Positions 7,888 through 46,806 of a DNA stretch of 64,000 bases are shown here, piece by piece. The notes under the pieces were generated by a model, which ran no database searches, was not told where the DNA came from, and saw only the letters and a list, made by a program, of their open reading frames with translations. This DNA is from an uncultured Chromatiales bacterium (GTDB lineage: Bacteria; Pseudomonadota; Gammaproteobacteria; DATFLL01): the NCBI GenBank assembly GCA_964561765.1, contig CAZLQI010000009.1, positions 37,266 through 101,265 of the forward strand, in the 5' to 3' direction. How positions within the stretch are numbered: the stretch's first letter is position 1; every line of letters starts with the position of its first letter. The position numbers were made by a program, and so were the translations under genes.

Positions 7888-8598
7888 ATGTACCCCAGCA
7901 TTGAGGCGAATACTGCCAGTGAACTGGTCGAAACCTATGCCCCACTGGTCAAGCGTATTGCCTATCATCTGATTGCGCGCCTGCCACCGAGTGTGTCGGT
8001 CGATGATCTCATTCAGGCCGGCATGCTGGGTTTGCTCGACGCCTGCCGCCAGTACGATCCTTCCCAGGGTGCAAAGTTTGCAACCTATGCGCGTATACGC
8101 GTGCGTGGTGCCATGCTGGATGAATTGCGTCGCAATGATTGGGCGCCGAAGTCGGTGCATCGGCGCATGCGCGATGTGGAAGTGGCGATCAGGGTGATTG
8201 AGGCACGGTACGGACGTGATGCCCGCGACGGCGAGGTCGCCGAATGCATGGGCATTGAACTCGATGAGTATTACCACATCCTGCAAGACGCGCGCAGTTG
8301 CACGGTGCTGACTCTCGACGATGCCGGGCTGGAGGGCAATCTGGGTCGCGATGACCCGGGGGAAGGGCTGCGCGGCCCCCTGGATGGCCTGCTCACTGAG
8401 CAGTTCCGCCAGGAACTGGCCAATGCTATCAGTAGTCTGCCCGAGCGCGAGCGCATGGTAGTCAGCTTCTATTATGACAACGAACTCAATCTGCGCGAGA
8501 TCGGCCAGCTGCTGGGTGTGAGTGAATCGCGCATCAGCCAGTTGTTGAGCCAGGCGCATCTGCGGCTGCGCTCGCGCTTGCGCGGCGGCACGGACTGA
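7888..8598 (+). CDS. RNA polymerase sigma factor, FliA/sigma-28 family (paralog 1; extra copy)
   Basis: 236 aa from an in-frame ATG (MYPSIEANTASELVETYAPLVKRIAYHL...); regions 2, 3 and 4 are conserved and highly similar to the canonical fliA at 46078. Confidence 0.85.
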   Translation: MYPSIEANTASELVETYAPLVKRIAYHLIARLPPSVSVDDLIQAGMLGLLDACRQYDPSQGAKFATYARIRVRGAMLDELRRNDWAPKSVHRRMRDVEVAIRVIEARYGRDARDGEVAECMGIELDEYYHILQDARSCTVLTLDDAGLEGNLGRDDPGEGLRGPLDGLLTEQFRQELANAISSLPERERMVVSFYYDNELNLREIGQLLGVSESRISQLLSQAHLRLRSRLRGGTD

Positions 8599-8821
8599 CG
8601 GTATTTATCACCAGTCCGACGGGAAGTTGTGATGTGCTTGGTGTTTTTGGTGTCGCTGCACGGTTATGCTCAATGCGTCGTGATGCTACTTTCCGAGCGC
8701 AGGATGGCGATTCAATATGCCTGGTACAAACCGTTCGCTGCCCGCATTATCTGTCGGCGCGTGGAACGGTCGATATAATAATTATTCATTCTTGATTTGA
8801 AGACCTCTCAAGGAGGCATCG

Positions 8822-10312
8822 ATGAGCCTGTCCGATATTTTTCTCTTCCTGCCGGGACCGCCCGTCATTTCCATCCTGTTCTGGGTGGTGCTGTTAATGG
8901 CGGCCCTGTACCTGGCACGTACCCCTGCACATCGCGCCCTGTTATCTCTGAGCAGTGTGCTGCACCATGCCTTCAGACTGTCGGCGTACTCGGTGCGCCT
9001 GGCCGAACAACGCCTGCACCTGCGCAACCGCGAGGTGTTGCTCTCTGCCGGGCGCGAGGCGTCGGAACGCATCATTGAACGCGAGTTCGAACGCGTGGAT
9101 GATGGGGTGCGCCGCGATCTGGCCGAGTATCCCGCCCTGCAGCGCCACATCAACGAGGGCATCACGCATATCGAGGAGGACTACCAGCAGAGCACCGAGG
9201 TACCACCGGCCCCGCCGGGCTGGGTCAAGGCCGTTGAGTCCGTGGCCAAGATTCCGTCTGCGGGCGATCCTATGGTGGCCAATATTCTTGAGGATATCCA
9301 CAGTTCGTTGCTCAAGGCGCAGAACCATGCCACCGAGGAATACCGCAAGAGTAGCCACGAACGCCATATGTATCTCAAACGCATGATGCCGCACTGGCGC
9401 AGGCTGCTGCAATTGCTTGGTCGTGTGGACAAGAATGTGAACAGCCTGCTGGAGCGATCCAAGACGCTGGACCGACACATGGACGAGTACGAGGGGATCA
9501 TCAAGAAGACGGACCATGCGGTGCGCATGCTGTCCTCGTCTTCCATTACCCAGTTCTTCATCGCGGCCTTTGTGTTGGTGATTGCCATTGGTGGTGCGGT
9601 GATCAACTTTCATCTCATCGCCCGGCCGATGTCGGAGATGGTAGGTGGGACGAGTTACATCAATCTGGGTTTTGCCAGCTATCGGACTGCGGATGTTGCC
9701 GCCCTGGTGCTCATCTTGGTCGAGGTCGCGATGGGCCTGTTTCTGATGGAGTCCTTGCGTATCACGCGCCTGTTCCCGGTGATCAATGCGCTGAATGACA
9801 AGCTGCGTGTGCGCATGATCTGGATTACATTCGCCATCCTGCTCGCATTGGCCAGTGTCGAATCGGGGCTGGCCTATATGCGTGAGATCCTCTCGCTGGA
9901 TGATGCGGCGCTGCGCGCCACGCTGCTCGGCAATACCTCCGTGGCGGTGGACCATACCAGCCGCTGGATCACCACGGCGGCGCAGATGGGGATGAGTTTC
10001 ATCTTGCCCTTCGCCCTGACCTTTGTGGCGATTCCACTGGAGTCCTTTATTCATTCCCTGCGCACCGTGCTGGGTCTCGTCGGTGTGGGGTTGTTGCGGG
10101 CGTTGGCTTTTGCGCTGCGACTGCTGGGCAACATCTCACGCTATACCGGAACACTGTCGGTCAATGTGTATGATTTGCTGATCTTTGCGCCGTTGTGGCT
10201 GGAGCGCCAGTGGATACAACGCAGTGCCGGGCGGCCCCTCGGCGTGGTGGTGAAGGCGGAGGGTCGACGCGGGGGCGGCGCCAAGCCCGCCGCGGTGGAG
10301 GGGCAGTCATGA
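8822..10312 (+). CDS. conserved hypothetical polytopic membrane protein (N-terminal TM, ~200-aa charged helical domain, 5 C-terminal TM helices)
   Basis: 496-aa ORF with a strong AGGAGG RBS 6 nt upstream; hydrophobic segments at about aa 8-30, 241-266, 295-315, 333-355, 382-410 and 413-436; the stop overlaps the next gene's start (ATGA); no family recognised. Confidence 0.7.
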   Translation: MSLSDIFLFLPGPPVISILFWVVLLMAALYLARTPAHRALLSLSSVLHHAFRLSAYSVRLAEQRLHLRNREVLLSAGREASERIIEREFERVDDGVRRDLAEYPALQRHINEGITHIEEDYQQSTEVPPAPPGWVKAVESVAKIPSAGDPMVANILEDIHSSLLKAQNHATEEYRKSSHERHMYLKRMMPHWRRLLQLLGRVDKNVNSLLERSKTLDRHMDEYEGIIKKTDHAVRMLSSSSITQFFIAAFVLVIAIGGAVINFHLIARPMSEMVGGTSYINLGFASYRTADVAALVLILVEVAMGLFLMESLRITRLFPVINALNDKLRVRMIWITFAILLALASVESGLAYMREILSLDDAALRATLLGNTSVAVDHTSRWITTAAQMGMSFILPFALTFVAIPLESFIHSLRTVLGLVGVGLLRALAFALRLLGNISRYTGTLSVNVYDLLIFAPLWLERQWIQRSAGRPLGVVVKAEGRRGGGAKPAAVEGQS

Positions 10313-10980
10313 ACAGGCGTCCTGACCTTATGCGTGTCCTGGTTGCGCTCCTGTTGGTGTTCGCGCTTGCGGGCTGCTCTTCCAAGAGTGCGGTCTCCCA
10401 CACCCGCGGGGTCTACATGCTCATTGACACCTCAGGGACTTATACCAATGAGTTGCAGAAGGCACAAAATATTGTCGACTACGTGCTGTCCAAGCTCAAC
10501 CCGGGTGATTCTTTTGCTGTGGCGCGTATCGATACCGGCAGTTTCAGTCAGAAAAATATCATAGCCAAGATGACGTTTGATGATCGCCCCAGTATGGCCA
10601 ATGCGGAGAAGCGCGAGTTTCGCGAGACCATCGATAAATTCATCAAGCACGTGAGACCGAGCGCTTACACGGATGTCACCGGCGGTATCCTGCAGGCCAT
10701 CGAGTTTCTCAACGAGGTGAACCCGGGCCACAAGACCATCCTGATCTTCTCCGACCTCAAGCAAGATCTGAAGAAAGGCTATGTGCGCAACATTCCTCTC
10801 CAGCTCAACGGTTTCGATGTGATCGCACTCAATGTCACCAAATTGCGCAGCGACAATGTTGATCCCCGCGAGTACATGAACAGGTTGAAGGAATGGCGCA
10901 AGAAGGTCGTGGCGGGCGGTGGTCATTGGCGCGTCATCAATGACCTGGAACGTATGGAGGGAATCTTCCCTAATCCATAG
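10309..10980 (+). CDS. VWA (von Willebrand factor A) domain lipoprotein
   Basis: Signal peptide plus lipobox LLVFALAGCSS; MIDAS motif DxSxS (YMLIDTSGT) with downstream TDVTGG and IFSDLKQD elements typical of VWA; translationally coupled to the upstream membrane protein. Confidence 0.75.
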   Translation: MNRRPDLMRVLVALLLVFALAGCSSKSAVSHTRGVYMLIDTSGTYTNELQKAQNIVDYVLSKLNPGDSFAVARIDTGSFSQKNIIAKMTFDDRPSMANAEKREFRETIDKFIKHVRPSAYTDVTGGILQAIEFLNEVNPGHKTILIFSDLKQDLKKGYVRNIPLQLNGFDVIALNVTKLRSDNVDPREYMNRLKEWRKKVVAGGGHWRVINDLERMEGIFPNP

Positions 10981-11020
10981 ATTATGGTCAGTGATAGCGT
11001 GGGACGACACGCCTTTTCAT

Positions 11021-11057
11021 AAAAAAACCCGTGATGGTATACCGCGGGTTTTTTTAT
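11021..11057. terminator. bidirectional rho-independent terminator (A7 - GC hairpin - T7)
   Basis: aaaaaaaCCCGtgatggtataccgCGGGttttttt, between convergent genes ending at 10980 (+) and 11087 (-). Confidence 0.5.
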
Positions 11058-11086
11058 GGGCTGATCGAAGTGCGATTGAATGCTGA

Positions 11087-12319
11087 CTATTGAATGCGTG
11101 ACAGGACCCGTTCCAGTGCGCCGGATTGCGCCTGTGCCCACTGTCGGCCCTGCTCGGACAACCGGCGTGACCGGGTCTCGTCGCTGATCAGTTGGTATGC
11201 GGCTTCGACCAGAGCGTGGTCATTATCGACGCCAATGATCGCGCCCGCAGCGAGGGCTGCACGTACCACAGGATCATGGTGTACGGGGCCGACGATGACC
11301 GGACATGCCAGGCTCAGGGGCGTCAAGATATCGGGGGTGTGGCCCGCCATCTCGCTGAGGCTGCCACCGGCGACGACGAAGTCCGCACAGCGGTAGAGCG
11401 CCGTCAGTGTCTGTGGGTCTTCGATGTAGTAGACGCGACTCTTGATGGGTACGAATGAGGTGCTCAAACGGTTGTGCCGGTTGGTGGGTAGGTGGTACTT
11501 GAGGGCATCACGGTAGACCGGTTCGTAGCGTTCGCCATCCCGGGGTGCCAGCGCGAGCAGGCCCATTTTGCGCCGTATCAAAGTGAAGAAGGCGCCATAG
11601 GCGATGGCCTCCTCACCGGCGCCGGTGGCGGCAAAATAGCCGATCCAGCGCCCATTCTTGCGGTGCGCGCGAAAGCGCTCACAGAGGCCGTCAATACCCG
11701 CTGGTTTGGGTAGTTGCGTGATGCCGAGCAGGGGATCGCCGGTCAGTTCGGTATCGGCCATGTGGGTGACGTCGGCGGGATCGGCGCTCAACAGAGCCTG
11801 GGCGCGGGGCATTTTGGTGACATGGCGGGGCACGTTGACCCAGAACAGCGGTGCACGGGTGGCTGTGGCGATCGTCTCGCTATGGGGTATGTCACCAAGC
11901 AGGATGAGGCGCACTGGTGCGAGCCTGGCCAAGGCCCTGCGCAGGGCCACAGGATGGGCAGGGAGTGGCACATACGGCATGGCTTGCGTCGATGACGCGG
12001 TGGGTGGTGCGTCAAAGCCGGCGCTGGCAACGCGCCCGAAACGTGCCTGTAACCCGGCCAGCAGGTCGTGGGCCTGCGCCAGGGTGGCACTGTCGCCGAT
12101 CAGCACTGTGGCCTCGCGCGCCACGCACGGGTGCGTCCCGAATCCCATACGCGCAAATAGTGACATGAGCGAGCCCATTGAATAAAAAACCGGTATTATA
12201 CGGACATGGGCGTCAAATGCCACGAGAGGAATAGCCGCCTGCGAGGGTATCGCCACGGTTCCAACAACGGCGCATGCAATTGCGATTGTCTCGCGGGCAT
12301 CGGGTACAGCGATTGCCAC
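11087..12319 (-). CDS. GT30-family glycosyltransferase, Kdo-transferase (WaaA/KdtA)-like with a divergent N-terminal domain
   Basis: C-terminal half aligns with KdtA (RWIGYFAATGAGEE ~ RPVWIASSTHEGEE; FVVAGGSLSEMAGHTPDILTPL...VIVGPVHHD ~ FVGGSLVERGGHNPLEAAAH...VLMGPHTFN; GALERVLSRI ~ GALQRLLQLL); the N-terminal HAASVGE-type motif is not recognisable; the start could instead be the internal Met at 12178. Confidence 0.55.
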   Translation of the reverse strand: MAIAVPDARETIAIACAVVGTVAIPSQAAIPLVAFDAHVRIIPVFYSMGSLMSLFARMGFGTHPCVAREATVLIGDSATLAQAHDLLAGLQARFGRVASAGFDAPPTASSTQAMPYVPLPAHPVALRRALARLAPVRLILLGDIPHSETIATATRAPLFWVNVPRHVTKMPRAQALLSADPADVTHMADTELTGDPLLGITQLPKPAGIDGLCERFRAHRKNGRWIGYFAATGAGEEAIAYGAFFTLIRRKMGLLALAPRDGERYEPVYRDALKYHLPTNRHNRLSTSFVPIKSRVYYIEDPQTLTALYRCADFVVAGGSLSEMAGHTPDILTPLSLACPVIVGPVHHDPVVRAALAAGAIIGVDNDHALVEAAYQLISDETRSRRLSEQGRQWAQAQSGALERVLSRIQ

Positions 12320-12497: not shown

Positions 12498-13061
12498 GTG
12501 TCTGCCGATAAACTGCTATGGTTCGCGCCGGGGATATGTGCACTGGCGTACTGGCATGGTGAGGGCATTTTCAGCAGTGTTGAGCAAGTCTTACAATCGG
12601 ACAAATTCATGAGCCATACGATTCCAGTCGGGCGCACACGCCACCCCATGTGGTTCTATGAGCGGAACTATGCCCTGTTGCATCGACTCGTACCGGGCGG
12701 ATTGAGTCTGGGTGAGGATGTCCTGCTGGCTGCCCGCGAGAGTGGTCTGTTGCGTTTTCGTGTCGAGGAACAGTGCAAATATACCCTGACGGTTGGCATC
12801 ACTCACGCGTTTAGTGTCCGATCGGCGGCGGTGAACGAGCTGTATTTGCAGGTAAGAATCTATTGTGATGCCAGTGTGGCTGAAGTGATGGGTTATCAGG
12901 GGCATTGGCGATTTCTGCCTACCTATGATTACCCTAATGAAAACATGTTTTTACCCGATGAGAAACGACAAGTCAATTTTCTGCTCTATGAATTATTGTG
13001 CCATTTCATGACGCGAAATCGTCAGTTTGTGGACATGACCGTCGATACTGTAGGTAGCTGA
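12498..13061 (+). CDS. DUF1249 family protein (YqiB-like)
   Basis: RIYCDASVAEVMGYQGHWRFLPTYDYPNENMFLPDEKRQVNFLLYELL aligns with E. coli YqiB ([48 protein letters not shown]); the true start is possibly the Met at 12609. Confidence 0.7.
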   Translation: MSADKLLWFAPGICALAYWHGEGIFSSVEQVLQSDKFMSHTIPVGRTRHPMWFYERNYALLHRLVPGGLSLGEDVLLAARESGLLRFRVEEQCKYTLTVGITHAFSVRSAAVNELYLQVRIYCDASVAEVMGYQGHWRFLPTYDYPNENMFLPDEKRQVNFLLYELLCHFMTRNRQFVDMTVDTVGS

Positions 13062-13062
13062 C

Positions 13063-13848
13063 ATGAATGTGCCTGAGAAAAGAGGGTGTGACTCGAACGC
13101 CGCGTGCGCCCTTGACGCGACCTTCGTGTCCTGCAAGTGGCGTGGAATTGGCCGCGTCATGTTGTTGTGCGTTGCGCTGAGTGTGCCCGTGGGGGCAGTG
13201 GCCGCTAATGCAGCTCAGGCCCTGCAAGCGCAGCAAGTCGGTGATTTCGCTACCGCGATGCACGTGTGGATGTCATTGGCGCAAGGCGGTGATCCGGTGG
13301 CGGAGTACAATCTCGGTTTGCTGTACCGCCATGGACAGGGCGTGGCGCAGAGTGTTGCTCAGGCACGGCATTGGTTTACCCTTGCGGCCAGTCACGGGTT
13401 GGCTGATGCCTATGCCATGCTGGGTCAGGTACCGGCCGCTCTACAGGCCAGCGCCCAGGCGCCTGCGATGCGCAGTCCGAACGCGCCACAGGTCAGCGCC
13501 AATGTGCCTGCGAGGCAGACATCGACAGGTGTAGCACCAGGCGCCAGTGTGGCGCAGGGTGCACAGAGGTGGATCAGGCAACAAAGCCCGAGCCACTACA
13601 CCCTCCAGTTGGCGAGCAGCAAGAACGTGAGTCTGATCGAGAAATACATCTCTGCTAATAACCTTGAGGGGCGAGCAGGCTATTACAAGAGTCGGCGAGG
13701 TGGCGAGGATTGGTATGCCTTGGTCTACGGCAGCTACGCCTCCTTGGCCACTGCGAAGGCGGCCATCGCCAGTTTACCCGCGAGTCTGCGCAAGTGGTCA
13801 CCGTGGGTACGCAAGTATGCCGATATCCAGCATATCATGGCGCGTTGA
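13063..13848 (+). CDS. Sel1-repeat / SPOR-domain periplasmic protein
   Basis: Sel1-like repeats (AEYNLGLLYRHGQGVAQSVAQARHWFTLAASHG) and a C-terminal SPOR domain (HYTLQLASSKNVSLIEKYI...WYALVYGSYASLATAKAAIASLP); signal-peptide-like MLLCVALSVPVGAVAANA suggests a start near 13159. Confidence 0.7.
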   Translation: MNVPEKRGCDSNAACALDATFVSCKWRGIGRVMLLCVALSVPVGAVAANAAQALQAQQVGDFATAMHVWMSLAQGGDPVAEYNLGLLYRHGQGVAQSVAQARHWFTLAASHGLADAYAMLGQVPAALQASAQAPAMRSPNAPQVSANVPARQTSTGVAPGASVAQGAQRWIRQQSPSHYTLQLASSKNVSLIEKYISANNLEGRAGYYKSRRGGEDWYALVYGSYASLATAKAAIASLPASLRKWSPWVRKYADIQHIMAR

Positions 13849-13860
13849 GTCAGCGTCGAC

Positions 13861-14304
13861 TCAGTCCTGAGTGTGTCCACCGCACTGTCTTGCCATGTTC
13901 ATGATGCGCTGCGCAGCGCGTGTTTCGGTCTTACCAGCGACCTTCACCGCCTGTGCATAGCCATGCAGAAATGCGGGCAGACGTTGTACCACCAGTGCCT
14001 TGCGGGCGCGGCTGACGCCCTGCACCGCCCAGGCAACGCGCCAGTCCGCATTAGGCAGGGCGTCGCAGATCTTCAGGCTCCAGGTCGGTTGACGCAGGGT
14101 CCATTCATGGGCGCGCACCACCAGCCGATAGACCGTCTCTTTGCCCTCCACACCGACACCGGGGCCGATGTACTCGACTTCAAGGGCGGGGGCCAATTGT
14201 TCGAATTCCGCGTCCAGCGCAGCCAGCGCGATATCCAGTGCCTGTGTGATGGCCACAGGCGTGGTCTGACTCAGTTTGGCAAGGACATCCATATAGTCAG
14301 GCAT
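13861..14304 (-). CDS. hypothetical protein (147 aa)
   Basis: The start was set at the Met with a GGAG RBS 6 nt upstream (…aaaggGGAGcaacgATG); the longer track ORF extends into the probable 5' UTR; no family recognised. Confidence 0.5.
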   Translation of the reverse strand: MPDYMDVLAKLSQTTPVAITQALDIALAALDAEFEQLAPALEVEYIGPGVGVEGKETVYRLVVRAHEWTLRQPTWSLKICDALPNADWRVAWAVQGVSRARKALVVQRLPAFLHGYAQAVKVAGKTETRAAQRIMNMARQCGGHTQD

Positions 14305-14847
14305 CGTTGCTCCCCTTTCGGTGCAAATCCAAGGCGACGCAGTATAACAGCCCTCAGACGGGGAATCTGCGTCATCACTCACGGTCAGGTTGTCGTTAAT
14401 GCCCCACGCCAGGTAGACCCCGGTAACCTCAGGGTTCATCAAGACGTGCGCAGAAAGCAGATACCCCACACGGGCGGGTGCGTGCAACTGGAATGATGGT
14501 CACACGATAGGGCGGAAAGAGGGTGAATGTGCTTCACGGAAATAGTACATTTCATACGGGAATATACAGGATATATGCTAGTCGGCCTCCGCTTTACAGT
14601 GGGTGGTTTATCGAGTGCATGTGCTGCCAACAGCGACAAGACGCATTGCGTTATTTTGGGCATGGATTTAGCCCTATTTCTGTGCTAGACCTTTAAGTAG
14701 CTCTGTAACTCAGGTTACTGCCAAACAGGATTACAGCATGATAGGTTAGAGCCGTCCCTTAAAGCGAAGGAATTCAGCAATCCTTGTATTCATTTAAGGT
14801 GTGATCTGGGATGTTGTTGTAATCCTAACTACTAGGAGGGCATAGCC

Positions 14848-15495
14848 ATGAATACTGAAGACCTACATATGAAAGAAACCCTGATCGGCGGTGCCGGGGC
14901 GGAAGCGATTGCCGGCATTGGTGCTGTCGCCCTGAGCGTTATCGGGCTGGCACATGTATATCCCGATGTACTGCTTGCCATAAGCGGGATCGCCGTTGGT
15001 ATCGGGTTGTTGCTGGAAGGCAGCAGTCTTGCGGTAGAACACAGAAAGTTGTTGTCACTCATTGCCCCTGACAAACTGGAGCACATAAACGTCGACATGG
15101 GTATGAGTGTGGAGGTAATCGCTGGTCTGACCGCGGTGGTACTCGGCATACTCTCAGTACTGGCCCTGAATCCCGACGTCCTCATGCCCGCTGCTGCGAT
15201 TGTCGTGGGCACCGCCCTGCTACTTTCCAGTGGTACCACGGCGCGTCTTAACGCGTTGCGTCTGGCGGGCCAGGATGTAGAGGGTCCTGCCCTGCACGTA
15301 GCCCGTGAAATGGTCAACGGCTCGGCCATGACCGAAGTGTTGGTGGGCATCAGTGCTGTTGTACTCGGTATCCTGGCACTGATTGGTGTTGTGCCGACCG
15401 TATTGACCCTGGTCGCCTTCCTGGCCATTGGTGGCTCGCTGGCGCTGAGCGGTTCTGCGATCGGTGGACGCCTGTTTGGCGCCATCAAGGCCTAA
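14848..15495 (+). CDS. small integral membrane protein with three tandem ~50-aa internal repeats (six predicted TM helices), Gly/Ala-zipper rich
   Basis: Strong RBS ctAGGAGGgcatagccATG; repeat units E(A/V)I/LxGI/LxAVxLxxI/LxL...P(D/T)VL...AxIxVGxxLLLxSG occur three times; preceded by a 540-bp AT-rich region. Confidence 0.65.
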   Translation: MNTEDLHMKETLIGGAGAEAIAGIGAVALSVIGLAHVYPDVLLAISGIAVGIGLLLEGSSLAVEHRKLLSLIAPDKLEHINVDMGMSVEVIAGLTAVVLGILSVLALNPDVLMPAAAIVVGTALLLSSGTTARLNALRLAGQDVEGPALHVAREMVNGSAMTEVLVGISAVVLGILALIGVVPTVLTLVAFLAIGGSLALSGSAIGGRLFGAIKA

Positions 15496-45204: not shown

Positions 45205-46081
45205 AACACAACAGTTTGATCAGGCCGCCGGGCTTCGGCGCATCACCCGACCCCGGCCGGTCCGTGTCGTCGCGGTGGCCAGCGGCAAGGGTGGGGTCGG
45301 CAAGACCAATGTCTCGGTCAATCTCGCCATGTCGTTGGTCAACAACGGCAAGAAGGTCATGCTCATGGACGCCGATCTGGGTCTGGGTAATGTCGATGTC
45401 CTGCTGGGTGTTCACCCACGCTACAATCTGTCACACGTGGTGACCGGCGTATGCAGTCTGGAGGAGGCCCTCGTCCAGGGTCCCGGTGGTCTGAGGATCA
45501 TCCCGGCCTCCTCGGGTGTGCAGCAAATGGCCATGCTCTCGCCCGCCGAACACGCTGGACTCATCCGTGCCTTCAGTGAACTGAGCCAGCAGGTCGATGT
45601 ACTGCTCATCGACACCGCCGCGGGTATCGCTGACAGCGTGATTAGCTTCAGCCGGGCCGCGCAGGAGGTGATCGTGGTGGTCTGCGATGAACCCGCATCG
45701 GTCACCGATGCCTATGCCCTGATCAAACTCCTGAACCGCGAGCACGGCGTCTATCGGTTCCATGTGCTGGCCAATATGGCCCAGAGTGCGCAACAGGGGC
45801 GCGACGTCTTTGACAAGATCAATAAGGTGTCGGACCGGTTTCTGGACGTGACTCTTGACTACCTCGGCCATATTCCTTACGACGATTTTCTACGCAAGGC
45901 AGTACAGAAACAGCGTACTGTTGTCGAGGCCTACCCGCGCAGCAAGGCGGCCATGGCCTTCAGGACACTGGCAGACAAGACAGAGCGCTGGCCCATGCCC
46001 TCTGCGGCGGGTGGCCATCTGGAGTTTTTTGTTGAACGCCTTATTCAGACCAATCTGCATGATGCGGGGGTGATGCCATGA
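45191..46081 (+). CDS. flhG: flagellar number regulator FlhG/FleN (MinD-like ATPase)
   Basis: Deviant Walker A SGKGGVGKT; ParA/MinD fold; overlaps the flhF stop; start choice 45191 versus 45197 is uncertain. Confidence 0.85.
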   Translation: MLMVETQQFDQAAGLRRITRPRPVRVVAVASGKGGVGKTNVSVNLAMSLVNNGKKVMLMDADLGLGNVDVLLGVHPRYNLSHVVTGVCSLEEALVQGPGGLRIIPASSGVQQMAMLSPAEHAGLIRAFSELSQQVDVLLIDTAAGIADSVISFSRAAQEVIVVVCDEPASVTDAYALIKLLNREHGVYRFHVLANMAQSAQQGRDVFDKINKVSDRFLDVTLDYLGHIPYDDFLRKAVQKQRTVVEAYPRSKAAMAFRTLADKTERWPMPSAAGGHLEFFVERLIQTNLHDAGVMP

Positions 46082-46806
46082 ATGGAATGGCAGTGTATGC
46101 GGCGGTCCAGTTGACGACGTACTATGACGACATGGTGGAACGACATGCGTCTTTGGTAAAGCGCATTGCCTATCATCTAATGAGCCGCCTGCCGGCGAGT
46201 ATCCAGATCGAGGACATGATCCAGGCGGGGATGATTGGCCTGCTCGAGGCCTCGCGTAATTACGACGAGACCCAGGGGGCCAGTTTCGAGACCTACGCCG
46301 GTATTCGTATCCGTGGCTCCATGTTAGATGAAATCCGCAAAAACGACTGGGCACCACGCTCGGTGCATCGCAAGGCGCGCATGGTCGCGGAGGCGGTACG
46401 CGGGATCGAGCATGCCCATGGGCGCGATGCCCGTGATCACGAGATCGCCGCCGAACTGGATATCAGCCTGAATGAGTACTACCACATCCTCCAGGAGGCC
46501 AATAATCACAAGATCATGAGCGTGGAGGACATCGGGGTGGGTGATGAGTCCTATCTCAATAACATGTCGGACAATGCCCCGGGCATCGTCGATGGCCTGC
46601 ACCGTGAAGACTTGCAGCGCCTGTTGGGTGCGGCTATCGCCGGTTTGCCAGAGCGCGAACGGCTGGTCATGGCCCTCTACTATGAAGAAGAACTCAATCT
46701 GCGCGAAATCGGGGCCGTGATGGGAGTGAGTGAGTCGCGGATCAGTCAGATACACAGTCAGGCGGTCATTCGCCTGCAGGCCCGGTTGGTCATCAGACCG
46801 GACTAA
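46078..46806 (+). CDS. fliA: flagellar sigma factor FliA (sigma-28), canonical copy
   Basis: 242 aa with sigma-70 regions 2, 3 and 4; flhF-flhG-fliA-cheY synteny; start overlaps the flhG stop (ATGA). Confidence 0.93.
   Translation: MNGMAVYAAVQLTTYYDDMVERHASLVKRIAYHLMSRLPASIQIEDMIQAGMIGLLEASRNYDETQGASFETYAGIRIRGSMLDEIRKNDWAPRSVHRKARMVAEAVRGIEHAHGRDARDHEIAAELDISLNEYYHILQEANNHKIMSVEDIGVGDESYLNNMSDNAPGIVDGLHREDLQRLLGAAIAGLPERERLVMALYYEEELNLREIGAVMGVSESRISQIHSQAVIRLQARLVIRPD

Follow-up and report, generated by a model that had tools for sequence, protein, structure and literature searches.

A pair of adjacent genes, here called A and B, lies directly downstream of a flagellar gene block in a 64,000-nt stretch of DNA from an uncultured Chromatiales bacterium (assembly GCA_964561765.1, contig CAZLQI010000009.1, positions 37,266 to 101,265; hereafter the window). 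Gene A encodes a polytopic inner-membrane protein with a long helical hairpin, and gene B a lipoprotein with the fold of a von Willebrand factor A (VWA) domain. We propose, tentatively and with a confidence that falls a little short of even, that the two proteins are subunits of an autonomous, widespread and undescribed inner-membrane/periplasm complex, which would not be a core flagellar component. Its autonomy is suggested by the unrelated gene contexts in which the pair is found, by a specific upstream motif that it carries irrespective of the adjacent sigma-factor gene, and by a terminator of its own. An earlier interpretation of this DNA, made from the letters alone (the sequence-only reading), had described an uncharacterised, translationally coupled module in which a polytopic coiled-coil membrane protein is paired with a VWA-fold lipoprotein, a description that is supported here, and had suggested a flagellar role for it, which is not borne out across the family.

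8822–10312, + strand: gene A, 496-aa inner-membrane protein (open reading frame and homologues, AlphaFold2 model, hydropathy)
10309–10980, + strand: gene B, 223-aa VWA-fold lipoprotein starting at the ATG at 10309 (open reading frame, homologues, AlphaFold2 model)
10309–10312, + strand: ATGA overlap of the stop codon of A and the start codon of B, read in gtcATGAac

Pairing and fusion of A and B

Both open reading frames, and the overlap between them, were found where the sequence-only reading had placed them. They are real genes, each with thousands of homologues, and the N-terminus of A (MSLSDIF...) agrees with the conserved start of its relatives. The ATGA overlap implies that translation of the two is coupled. 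To survey the pairing, the open reading frames of 81 loci, available as about 17 kb each, were clustered, and tblastn was run on 90 loci, 85 of which had room for B. Gene B lies directly 3' of A in 83 of these 85 (82 by tblastn, and locus L094 by hhalign at 98% probability), the remaining two loci belonging to a distant A subfamily (~28–30% identity) that lacks B. At the junction the two genes overlap by 4 nt in 22 loci and by 1 nt in four, and the gap never exceeds 52 nt. The 4-nt overlap is also present in the distant loci L089, L090, L092, L093 and L094, which have quite different neighbours.

In Gemmatimonadota-type contigs, A and B form a single protein of 652–691 aa (entries P0251, P0458–P0469, P0473 and P0479; L095 7001–9058 and L096 7001–9076). 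Such fusions occur on many independent contigs and make up at least 15 clusters at 90% identity, with divergence reaching 50% identity; one cluster, the first, has 10 members on a dozen contigs. The C-terminal part of the fusion is 56% identical to B (E=2e-83), and the fused gene stands alone in both L095 and L096. The linker (...HRRDGPVATVKRKAGTTTALLISLIMMGCSPP...) comprises a positive stretch, a hydrophobic segment and a Cys, and so retains the signal-peptide parts of B. These fusions are strong evidence for what would be a physical A-B complex, and in their own lineage at least they appear to place the VWA domain at the inner membrane. If the VWA domain is periplasmic, as the lipoprotein signal implies, the fusion also demands a cytoplasmic C-terminus for A, in independent agreement with the topology predicted from the positive-inside rule. 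An obligate VWA lipoprotein partner and a natural fusion together give a concrete picture of a two-subunit membrane complex.

Protein B, a divergent VWA-fold lipoprotein

The signal peptide of B ends in the lipobox LAGC (...LVFALAGC23); essentially all loci have a lipobox, Cys23 being invariant among homologues. A linker of ~9 residues leads to a minimal VWA domain of ~185 aa (residues 33–215). In the AlphaFold2 model (predicted local distance difference test score, pLDDT, 84.8) strands and helices follow the beta-alpha-beta order typical of VWA domains, and the 50 best Foldseek matches in the PDB are essentially all VWA domains (E 7e-7 to 5e-4, TM-score ~0.5), including those of TFIIH p44, ITIH1, CLCA1, NorD, CMG2, integrin I-domains, BatB (rank 45) and Cav alpha2-delta. 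Among 85 close homologues of B, 46 are matched by Pfam VWA_2 (best E 3.3e-7) and two by Pfam VWA. The window protein itself has no Pfam VWA match at E<=0.1; Pfam, NCBIfam and PADLOC returned weak lipoprotein and sortase-target fragments only, and a profile search of PDB sequences gave only a weak match to ITIH1 (E=0.25).

The sequence-only reading had credited B with a textbook metal ion-dependent adhesion site (MIDAS). The VWA fold is clear from the structural matches and the VWA_2 hits, whereas the motif departs from the textbook, being DxSxT (D40-T-S42-G-T44) in place of the classical DxSxS, the second Ser replaced by Thr. The MIDAS-like residues D40, S42, T44, T121/D122 and D149 are nevertheless invariant in the 85 homologues, and in the model their geometry is that of the motif: DxSxT directly follows beta-1, T121/D122 precedes a helix, and D149 follows beta-4. 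B is thus a lipoprotein whose VWA fold is minimal and divergent and carries a MIDAS-like site, and a new member of the VWA superfamily.

Protein A, a polytopic protein of no described family

Hydropathy and the AlphaFold2 model agree on the architecture that the sequence-only reading had given for A: one N-terminal transmembrane (TM) helix (14–32), roughly 200 aa folded as an antiparallel helical hairpin (33–227), and a C-terminal membrane region. Hydrophobic segments in the latter span 245–263, 292–310, 332–350, 392–410 and 416–434. That reading counted five C-terminal TM helices; in the model, segment 416–434 falls within one long helix (381–468), and there would be either four or five. The hairpin tip carries a conserved Pro-rich motif, EVPPxPPGW (126–134). 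From hydropathy and the positive-inside rule, the N-terminus is predicted to lie outside and to be followed by TM1 and a cytoplasmic hairpin (33–240 by this analysis). TM2 (245–263) would then lead into a periplasmic loop with PMSEMVGG (269–276), TM3 (292–310) into a cytoplasmic loop with five positive charges, TM4 (332–350) into a second periplasmic loop with conserved ends (351–381), and TM5 (392–410) into a hydrophobic amphipathic continuation and a basic cytoplasmic tail.

The claim that A has no recognisable family has also held. No Pfam, NCBIfam or PADLOC model matched the window protein, and Pfam searches of 41 relatives (27–57% identity) and eight unusually long ones gave scattered chance matches only. 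Profile searches of PDB sequences returned compositional matches only (coiled-coil and TM bias), and Foldseek found nothing in the PDB below E=0.1. The GGAxINF...PMSEM stretch of A resembles the CorA motif YGMNF...MPEL, but a relationship to CorA was set aside because the Pfam CorA model did not match A. On this evidence A appears to fall outside every described family, and generic helical hairpins are all that can be recognised of its fold.

Close homologues show extreme conservation of the TM segments, and charged or polar residues within TM2–TM5 or at their ends are invariant. This could be the mark of an ion channel or cation transporter, in which an A oligomer would form a pore with N262, E301, E347 and Q388 lining a cation path and the MIDAS of B capping the periplasmic mouth, comparable to the docking of the alpha2-delta VWA domain on Cav channels. 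The model of A has long helices continuous with the TM helices (H231–274, H326–369 and H381–468) that resemble the stalks of oligomeric channels; the low predicted TM-score of the monomer (pTM 0.59, with a pLDDT of 81.6) would fit an oligomer; and Cav alpha2-delta VWA domains are among the structural matches of B. We nevertheless regard a channel as unlikely. E301 and E347 are not conserved in the wider family, and the neighbourhoods show no consistent transport context. Family-wide, the most conserved residues (R33, W134, E310, T315, R329, E407, Y450/D451 and E461) cluster mostly at the cytoplasmic membrane interface and not along a pore, W134 being the exception at the hairpin tip. The preferred picture of an autonomous two-subunit complex gives this interface a different part, described below.

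Family size and spread

At 90% identity, a word-indexed search with A yielded more than 6,400 clusters, every one of them either unnamed or labelled "hypothetical". When 1.84 billion representatives were searched exhaustively with HMMER, 779 clusters at 50% identity reached E<=1e-3, 239 of them E<=1e-30. With each GTDB species represented by a single genome, a scan found A in at least 594 species genomes, 594 of the 599 stretches among the matches listed being confirmed as relatives. Relatives from the Gamma- and Zetaproteobacteria and the Campylobacterota are 58–74% identical to the window protein, and the best matches of B are 64–83% identical. Taken over classes and phyla, identities for either protein lie at 58–80%, and conservation this strong is consistent with what may be tightly packed interfaces.

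Carriers of A listed include Chromatiales, Thiohalophilus (among them the cultured T. thiocyanatoxydans DSM 16326), Thioalkalispiraceae, Thiohalomonadales, Ectothiorhodospiraceae, Thiotrichales, Mariprofundaceae/Zetaproteobacteria, some Alphaproteobacteria, and Sulfurimonadaceae. Desulfobacterales, Nitrospirota/Leptospirillia, Gemmatimonadota/Longimicrobiales and Ectothiorhodospira supply the more distant members. The A-B pair itself spans at least five phyla. The window sequence is identical to contigs of GCA_006240815.1 and GCA_006240935.1.

The A family is therefore large and unusually conserved, and has neither a Pfam model nor a solved relative. A full-text search of the literature found no description of the pair, nor of FliA paralogues such as the one beside it. 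Carriers are mostly sulfur- or iron-oxidising, sulfate-reducing and sediment-dwelling bacteria that are genetically poorly studied, which may explain why the module has gone unnoticed. Once its role is worked out, thousands of genes now labelled "hypothetical" would gain an annotation, and a new function in the envelope could come to light.

Gene neighbourhood and the flagellar question

In the window, gene calls and Pfam/NCBIfam matches place fliF, fliG, fliH, fliI, fliJ and fliK 5' of the pair, followed by a sigma-factor gene; the flagellar block 5' of that gene spans fliE–K and lies on the same strand as A-B. The setting is as the sequence-only reading had described it, between fliK with an extra sigma-28 gene on one side and a bidirectional terminator on the other.

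7888–8598, + strand: extra FliA (sigma-28) paralogue (NCBIfam FliA NF005413, synteny)
46078–46806: canonical fliA, after flhA-flhF-flhG in the che-containing cluster
11021–11056, both strands: bidirectional intrinsic terminator (A-run, 7-bp stem, T-run)

The product of 7888–8598 scores 283 bits against NF005413 (cut-off 201). It is indeed a second FliA, 53% identical to the canonical protein, and 54–64% identical to the sigma factors found 5' of A-B elsewhere. As sigma factors adjoining A-B are 50–58% identical to canonical FliA, they are slightly closer to each other. A FliA-type sigma gene lies directly 5' of A in 36 of the 85 loci, all from one gammaproteobacterial clade, in which the block runs sigma(FliA paralogue)-A-B-DUF1249-SPOR. 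Upstream of the sigma gene, this clade has either fliE–fliK or an MCP-cheR-cheD-cheB cluster (MCP, methyl-accepting chemotaxis protein). Because sigma-A-B order is kept while fliK and cheB alternate, the sigma gene appears to travel with A-B and not with the upstream clusters. This is genuine, if clade-limited, evidence suggesting an association with a motility-type regulator, and it raises the question of a second sigma-28 role in bacteria with a single polar flagellum.

From this arrangement the sequence-only reading had suggested an envelope-associated flagellar accessory, such as a ring, sheath or anchor of the polar flagellum, or a surface system under sigma-28 control; a stator-associated part would be a variant of the same idea. 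The pair does share the strand of fliE–K and directly follows that block and the FliA paralogue; sigma-A-B order, with fliK or cheB upstream, extends over a broad gammaproteobacterial clade; a Desulfobacterales-type contig has the order FapA(DUF342)-A-B, FapA/DUF342 being a family named for flagellar assembly; and some loci have a GCCGAYAA-like element just after a -10-like hexamer. Across the family, however, co-localisation of A-B with flagellar genes is not conserved. Among loci with at least 6 kb upstream, 31 of 62 have no fli, che or sigma gene at all, and the pair recurs in many unrelated contexts in at least five phyla. Within Thiohalophilus, L069 and L073 have fliK-sigma upstream while in L060 (type strain), L062 and L021 a LysR gene takes that place, and A-B and the upstream motif are kept in both. 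In the window A is not preceded by a canonical sigma-28 promoter (TAAA-N15-GCCGATAA), and the large soluble domain of A, with its predicted location in the cytoplasm, would not be placed to build a periplasmic ring. MotX and MotY are flagellar accessories that are likewise unlinked to flagellar clusters, and missing linkage alone therefore does not exclude a flagellar part. On balance such a role seems distinctly unlikely. Conservation of the neighbourhood with fliK and the extra fliA, which the earlier reading had proposed to examine, thus holds for sigma-A-B across one clade and fails in other lineages. That reading had also named what would speak against it, namely confident homology of the pair to a characterised non-flagellar system such as Bat or MoxR and an occurrence independent of flagellar genes; the pair does occur independently of them, and no such homology was found.

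The same 36 loci suggest another possibility, in which A-B would be a regulatory module for the FliA paralogue, the coiled coil of A sequestering or modulating sigma-28 while B senses a periplasmic cue. The order of sigma factor, membrane protein with a cytoplasmic domain, and periplasmic protein is that of RseA/RseB, and sigma factors beside A-B resemble one another (54–64%) more than canonical FliA (50–58%). Against this, most lineages have no adjacent sigma gene, fused A-B genes stand alone, and the pair has a promoter-like motif of its own. No anti-sigma domain was found in Pfam/NCBIfam searches, and A, at 58–74% identity across phyla, is far more conserved than we would expect of an anti-sigma factor. 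We consider this explanation very unlikely.

The autonomous complex that we prefer is better matched by the range of contexts, of which at least nine are unrelated. Besides the sigma-linked and FapA arrangements, these include XerD-YajQ-DsbC-A-B; TusA-A-B-(Pro-rich)-(coiled-coil SPOR protein); radical SAM protein-chorismate mutase-A-B-Pal-CpoB-SlyD in Sulfurimonadaceae (Campylobacterota); Pal-like OmpA-A-B in Zetaproteobacteria; lepA-lepB-rnc-era-recO...A-B; rubrerythrin...A-B; Lon...A-B; and ppx/ppk...A-B-ABC transporter. Unrelated neighbours of this kind were seen on Zetaproteobacteria, Campylobacterota, Desulfobacterales, Nitrospirota-type and Gemmatimonadota-type contigs. Recurring neighbours are envelope or division genes (Pal, CpoB, SPOR proteins, DsbC) and sulfur-trafficking genes (TusA, YeeE), neither set being consistent enough to assign the pair to a pathway. 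In the window, 12498–13061 encodes a DUF1249 (YqiB-like) protein and 13063–13848 a Sel1/SPOR-domain protein, and these two genes are found 3' of A-B in ~40 loci, some without a sigma gene. The DUF1249/SPOR, Pal-like OmpA and CpoB-like TPR neighbours make a link to septal or envelope functions possible.

The putative upstream control region and the terminator

8628–8670, + strand: promoter-like/operator-like DNA motif, with a -10-like TATGCT at 8665–8670 (aligned loci and position weight matrix)

In most Gamma- and Zetaproteobacterial loci a conserved motif, ttnTGTGAtccGnTTggCGtTTTt, lies ~90–200 nt 5' of A. Its conserved element is TGTGA-N6-TnGCG-TTTT, with a TAnnAT hexamer starting ~37 nt after TGTGA; the window version reads TGTGA-N6-TGGTG-TTTTT, followed by TATGCT. 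The motif was aligned in 38 loci (e.g. L006, L060, L019 and L084), with or without a sigma gene. A position weight matrix gave 51 matches in 2.26 Mb of locus DNA, 43 of them directly 5' of A and two more probably so; the test is partly circular, the matrix having been built from the same sites, but its specificity is visible. In the 64-kb window the motif is unique, with 0.02 matches expected by chance.

The spacings do not fit a sigma-54 (GG-N10-GC), a sigma-28 or a simple sigma-70 -35/-10 promoter, and these assignments were rejected. Upstream of A in the window there is no TAAA-N15-GCCGATAA, only GTCGATAT without a TAAA at the right spacing; in some other loci GCCGAYAA is found with a TAAA at N12. 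The geometry resembles a class II CRP/FNR-type site, and the motif can be considered a putative promoter/operator. A 48-aa open reading frame at 8632–8778, called on the source assemblies, is probably spurious: it overlaps the motif, and no equivalent exists in other loci, where the intergenic regions are shorter. An Rfam search of 8500–11200 found no riboswitch or known RNA element in the long leader of A.

The terminator downstream of B has a GC-rich stem of 7 bp (11027–11033 paired with 11043–11049) and is common to A-B and a convergent gene on the minus strand. The same Rfam search gave weak Thr- and Leu-leader matches on both strands, which correspond to this hairpin. With its own motif and its own terminator, A-B would be a self-contained transcription unit. 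The convergent gene (11087–12319, - strand) has weak similarity to the C-terminal half of the Kdo transferase WaaA/KdtA (best score 73 bits, where the cut-offs exceed 360), and its Glycos_transf_1 match is weak too; the gene, which shares the terminator with A-B, encodes a divergent glycosyltransferase-like protein. Further along, an open reading frame without a Pfam match occupies 13861–14487 (- strand; 208 aa from the first start, 147 aa as called in the source assemblies), and 14848–15495 (+ strand), likewise called in those assemblies, encodes a 215-aa Gly/Ala-rich, repetitive hydrophobic protein without a Pfam match.

A model of the proposed complex

From the anatomy and linkage of the pair we infer a possible mechanism. 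The N-terminus of A would be periplasmic, and its ~13-nm hairpin with the invariant Pro-rich tip, together with the C-terminal helix and tail, cytoplasmic. The VWA domain of B would be held at the periplasmic face of the inner membrane, beside the short conserved periplasmic loops of A (PMSEMVGG, 269–276, and the ends of 351–381). MIDAS sites of VWA domains in general bind a carboxylate; by analogy, the metal site of B may bind one supplied either by A (e.g. the conserved Glu272) or by a ligand in the envelope. The charged network of A at the cytoplasmic interface (R33, E310, T315, R329, E407, D451 and E461) could then couple binding to the coiled-coil platform, which would dock or organise cytoplasmic partners. 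In the clade of the window the module may, as a lineage-specific link, be co-regulated with motility/chemotaxis regulation or feed into it. A bolder version, which we think rather improbable, is that A-B is a new trans-inner-membrane machine that was recruited in this clade as the envelope-sensing partner of a second sigma-28, relaying a periplasmic cue to motility genes or the flagellar pole.

Several observations weigh against the proposed complex. The distant A subfamily that lacks B is found in L088 (8001–9416, Ectothiorhodospira shaposhnikovii CP178333.1), where A adjoins a convergent rhodanese gene, and in L091 (8001–9443), where it adjoins an FKBP gene, so that A can apparently work without a VWA partner. 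The acidic periplasmic-loop residue is kept in this subfamily too; the loop Glu is thus not confined to A proteins with a B partner and gives no specific evidence of a MIDAS contact. The distant B of L094 (9503–10138) has a degenerate MIDAS (DFSQD, T121 changed to Ala and D149 to Gly), and metal binding may not be universal in the B family. Most B proteins carry Ser at +2 after the lipid-modified Cys, which under the E. coli lipoprotein sorting rule predicts transfer to the outer membrane; an outer-membrane B with a linker of only ~9 residues could not reach the loops of A. The fusions argue instead for an inner-membrane position of the VWA domain, though solely in the lineage that has them. 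Finally, the coupling and scaffold functions are read from architecture and not from homology.

Comparison with known systems

We rate the A-B module as lying outside the known kinds of system, "new" here meaning uncharacterised and not that a new function has been demonstrated. In overall plan A is similar to MotA/TolQ/ExbB: the N-terminus lies outside, TM1 is followed by a large cytoplasmic domain of helices, and the TM bundle is conserved. Pal and CpoB are neighbours of A-B in Campylobacterota and Zetaproteobacteria loci. It differs in the number of TM helices, and Pfam MotA_ExbB (PF01618) matched neither A nor its 41 relatives. Assignment to this group was rejected, hhalign of an A alignment against an E. 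coli TolQ sequence entered by hand giving 0.5% probability.

The rpoE-rseA-rseB operon consists of a sigma factor, a membrane protein with a cytoplasmic domain and a periplasmic protein, and its gene order is that of the window and of 36 of the 85 loci. The sigma factor beside A-B is FliA-type and not of the extracytoplasmic function type, however, and A is polytopic, highly conserved, usually not adjacent to a sigma gene, and has no detected anti-sigma domain. BatA–E/MoxR systems also contain an envelope-associated bacterial VWA protein, BatB being a weak fold match of B, but A has no counterpart in them, and no MoxR, DUF58 or TPR Bat genes were present in the inspected locus gene tables or recurrent neighbour clusters.

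The voltage-gated calcium channel subunit Cav alpha2-delta offers an analogy only: there, a multi-pass protein is joined at the outer face of the membrane by a VWA/MIDAS domain, as proposed for A-B. A has no homology to channel subunits, the contact between A and B is a prediction, and B is a bacterial lipoprotein of other size and domain content. The closest relationship is with MIDAS-bearing VWA domains themselves, with which B shares the alpha/beta fold and the geometry of the motif. Compared with these, B is very divergent, a minimal single domain on a lipid anchor, with Thr in place of the second Ser of its motif; it has no MoxR/AAA+ partner, and an unrelated polytopic membrane protein accompanies it in every case.

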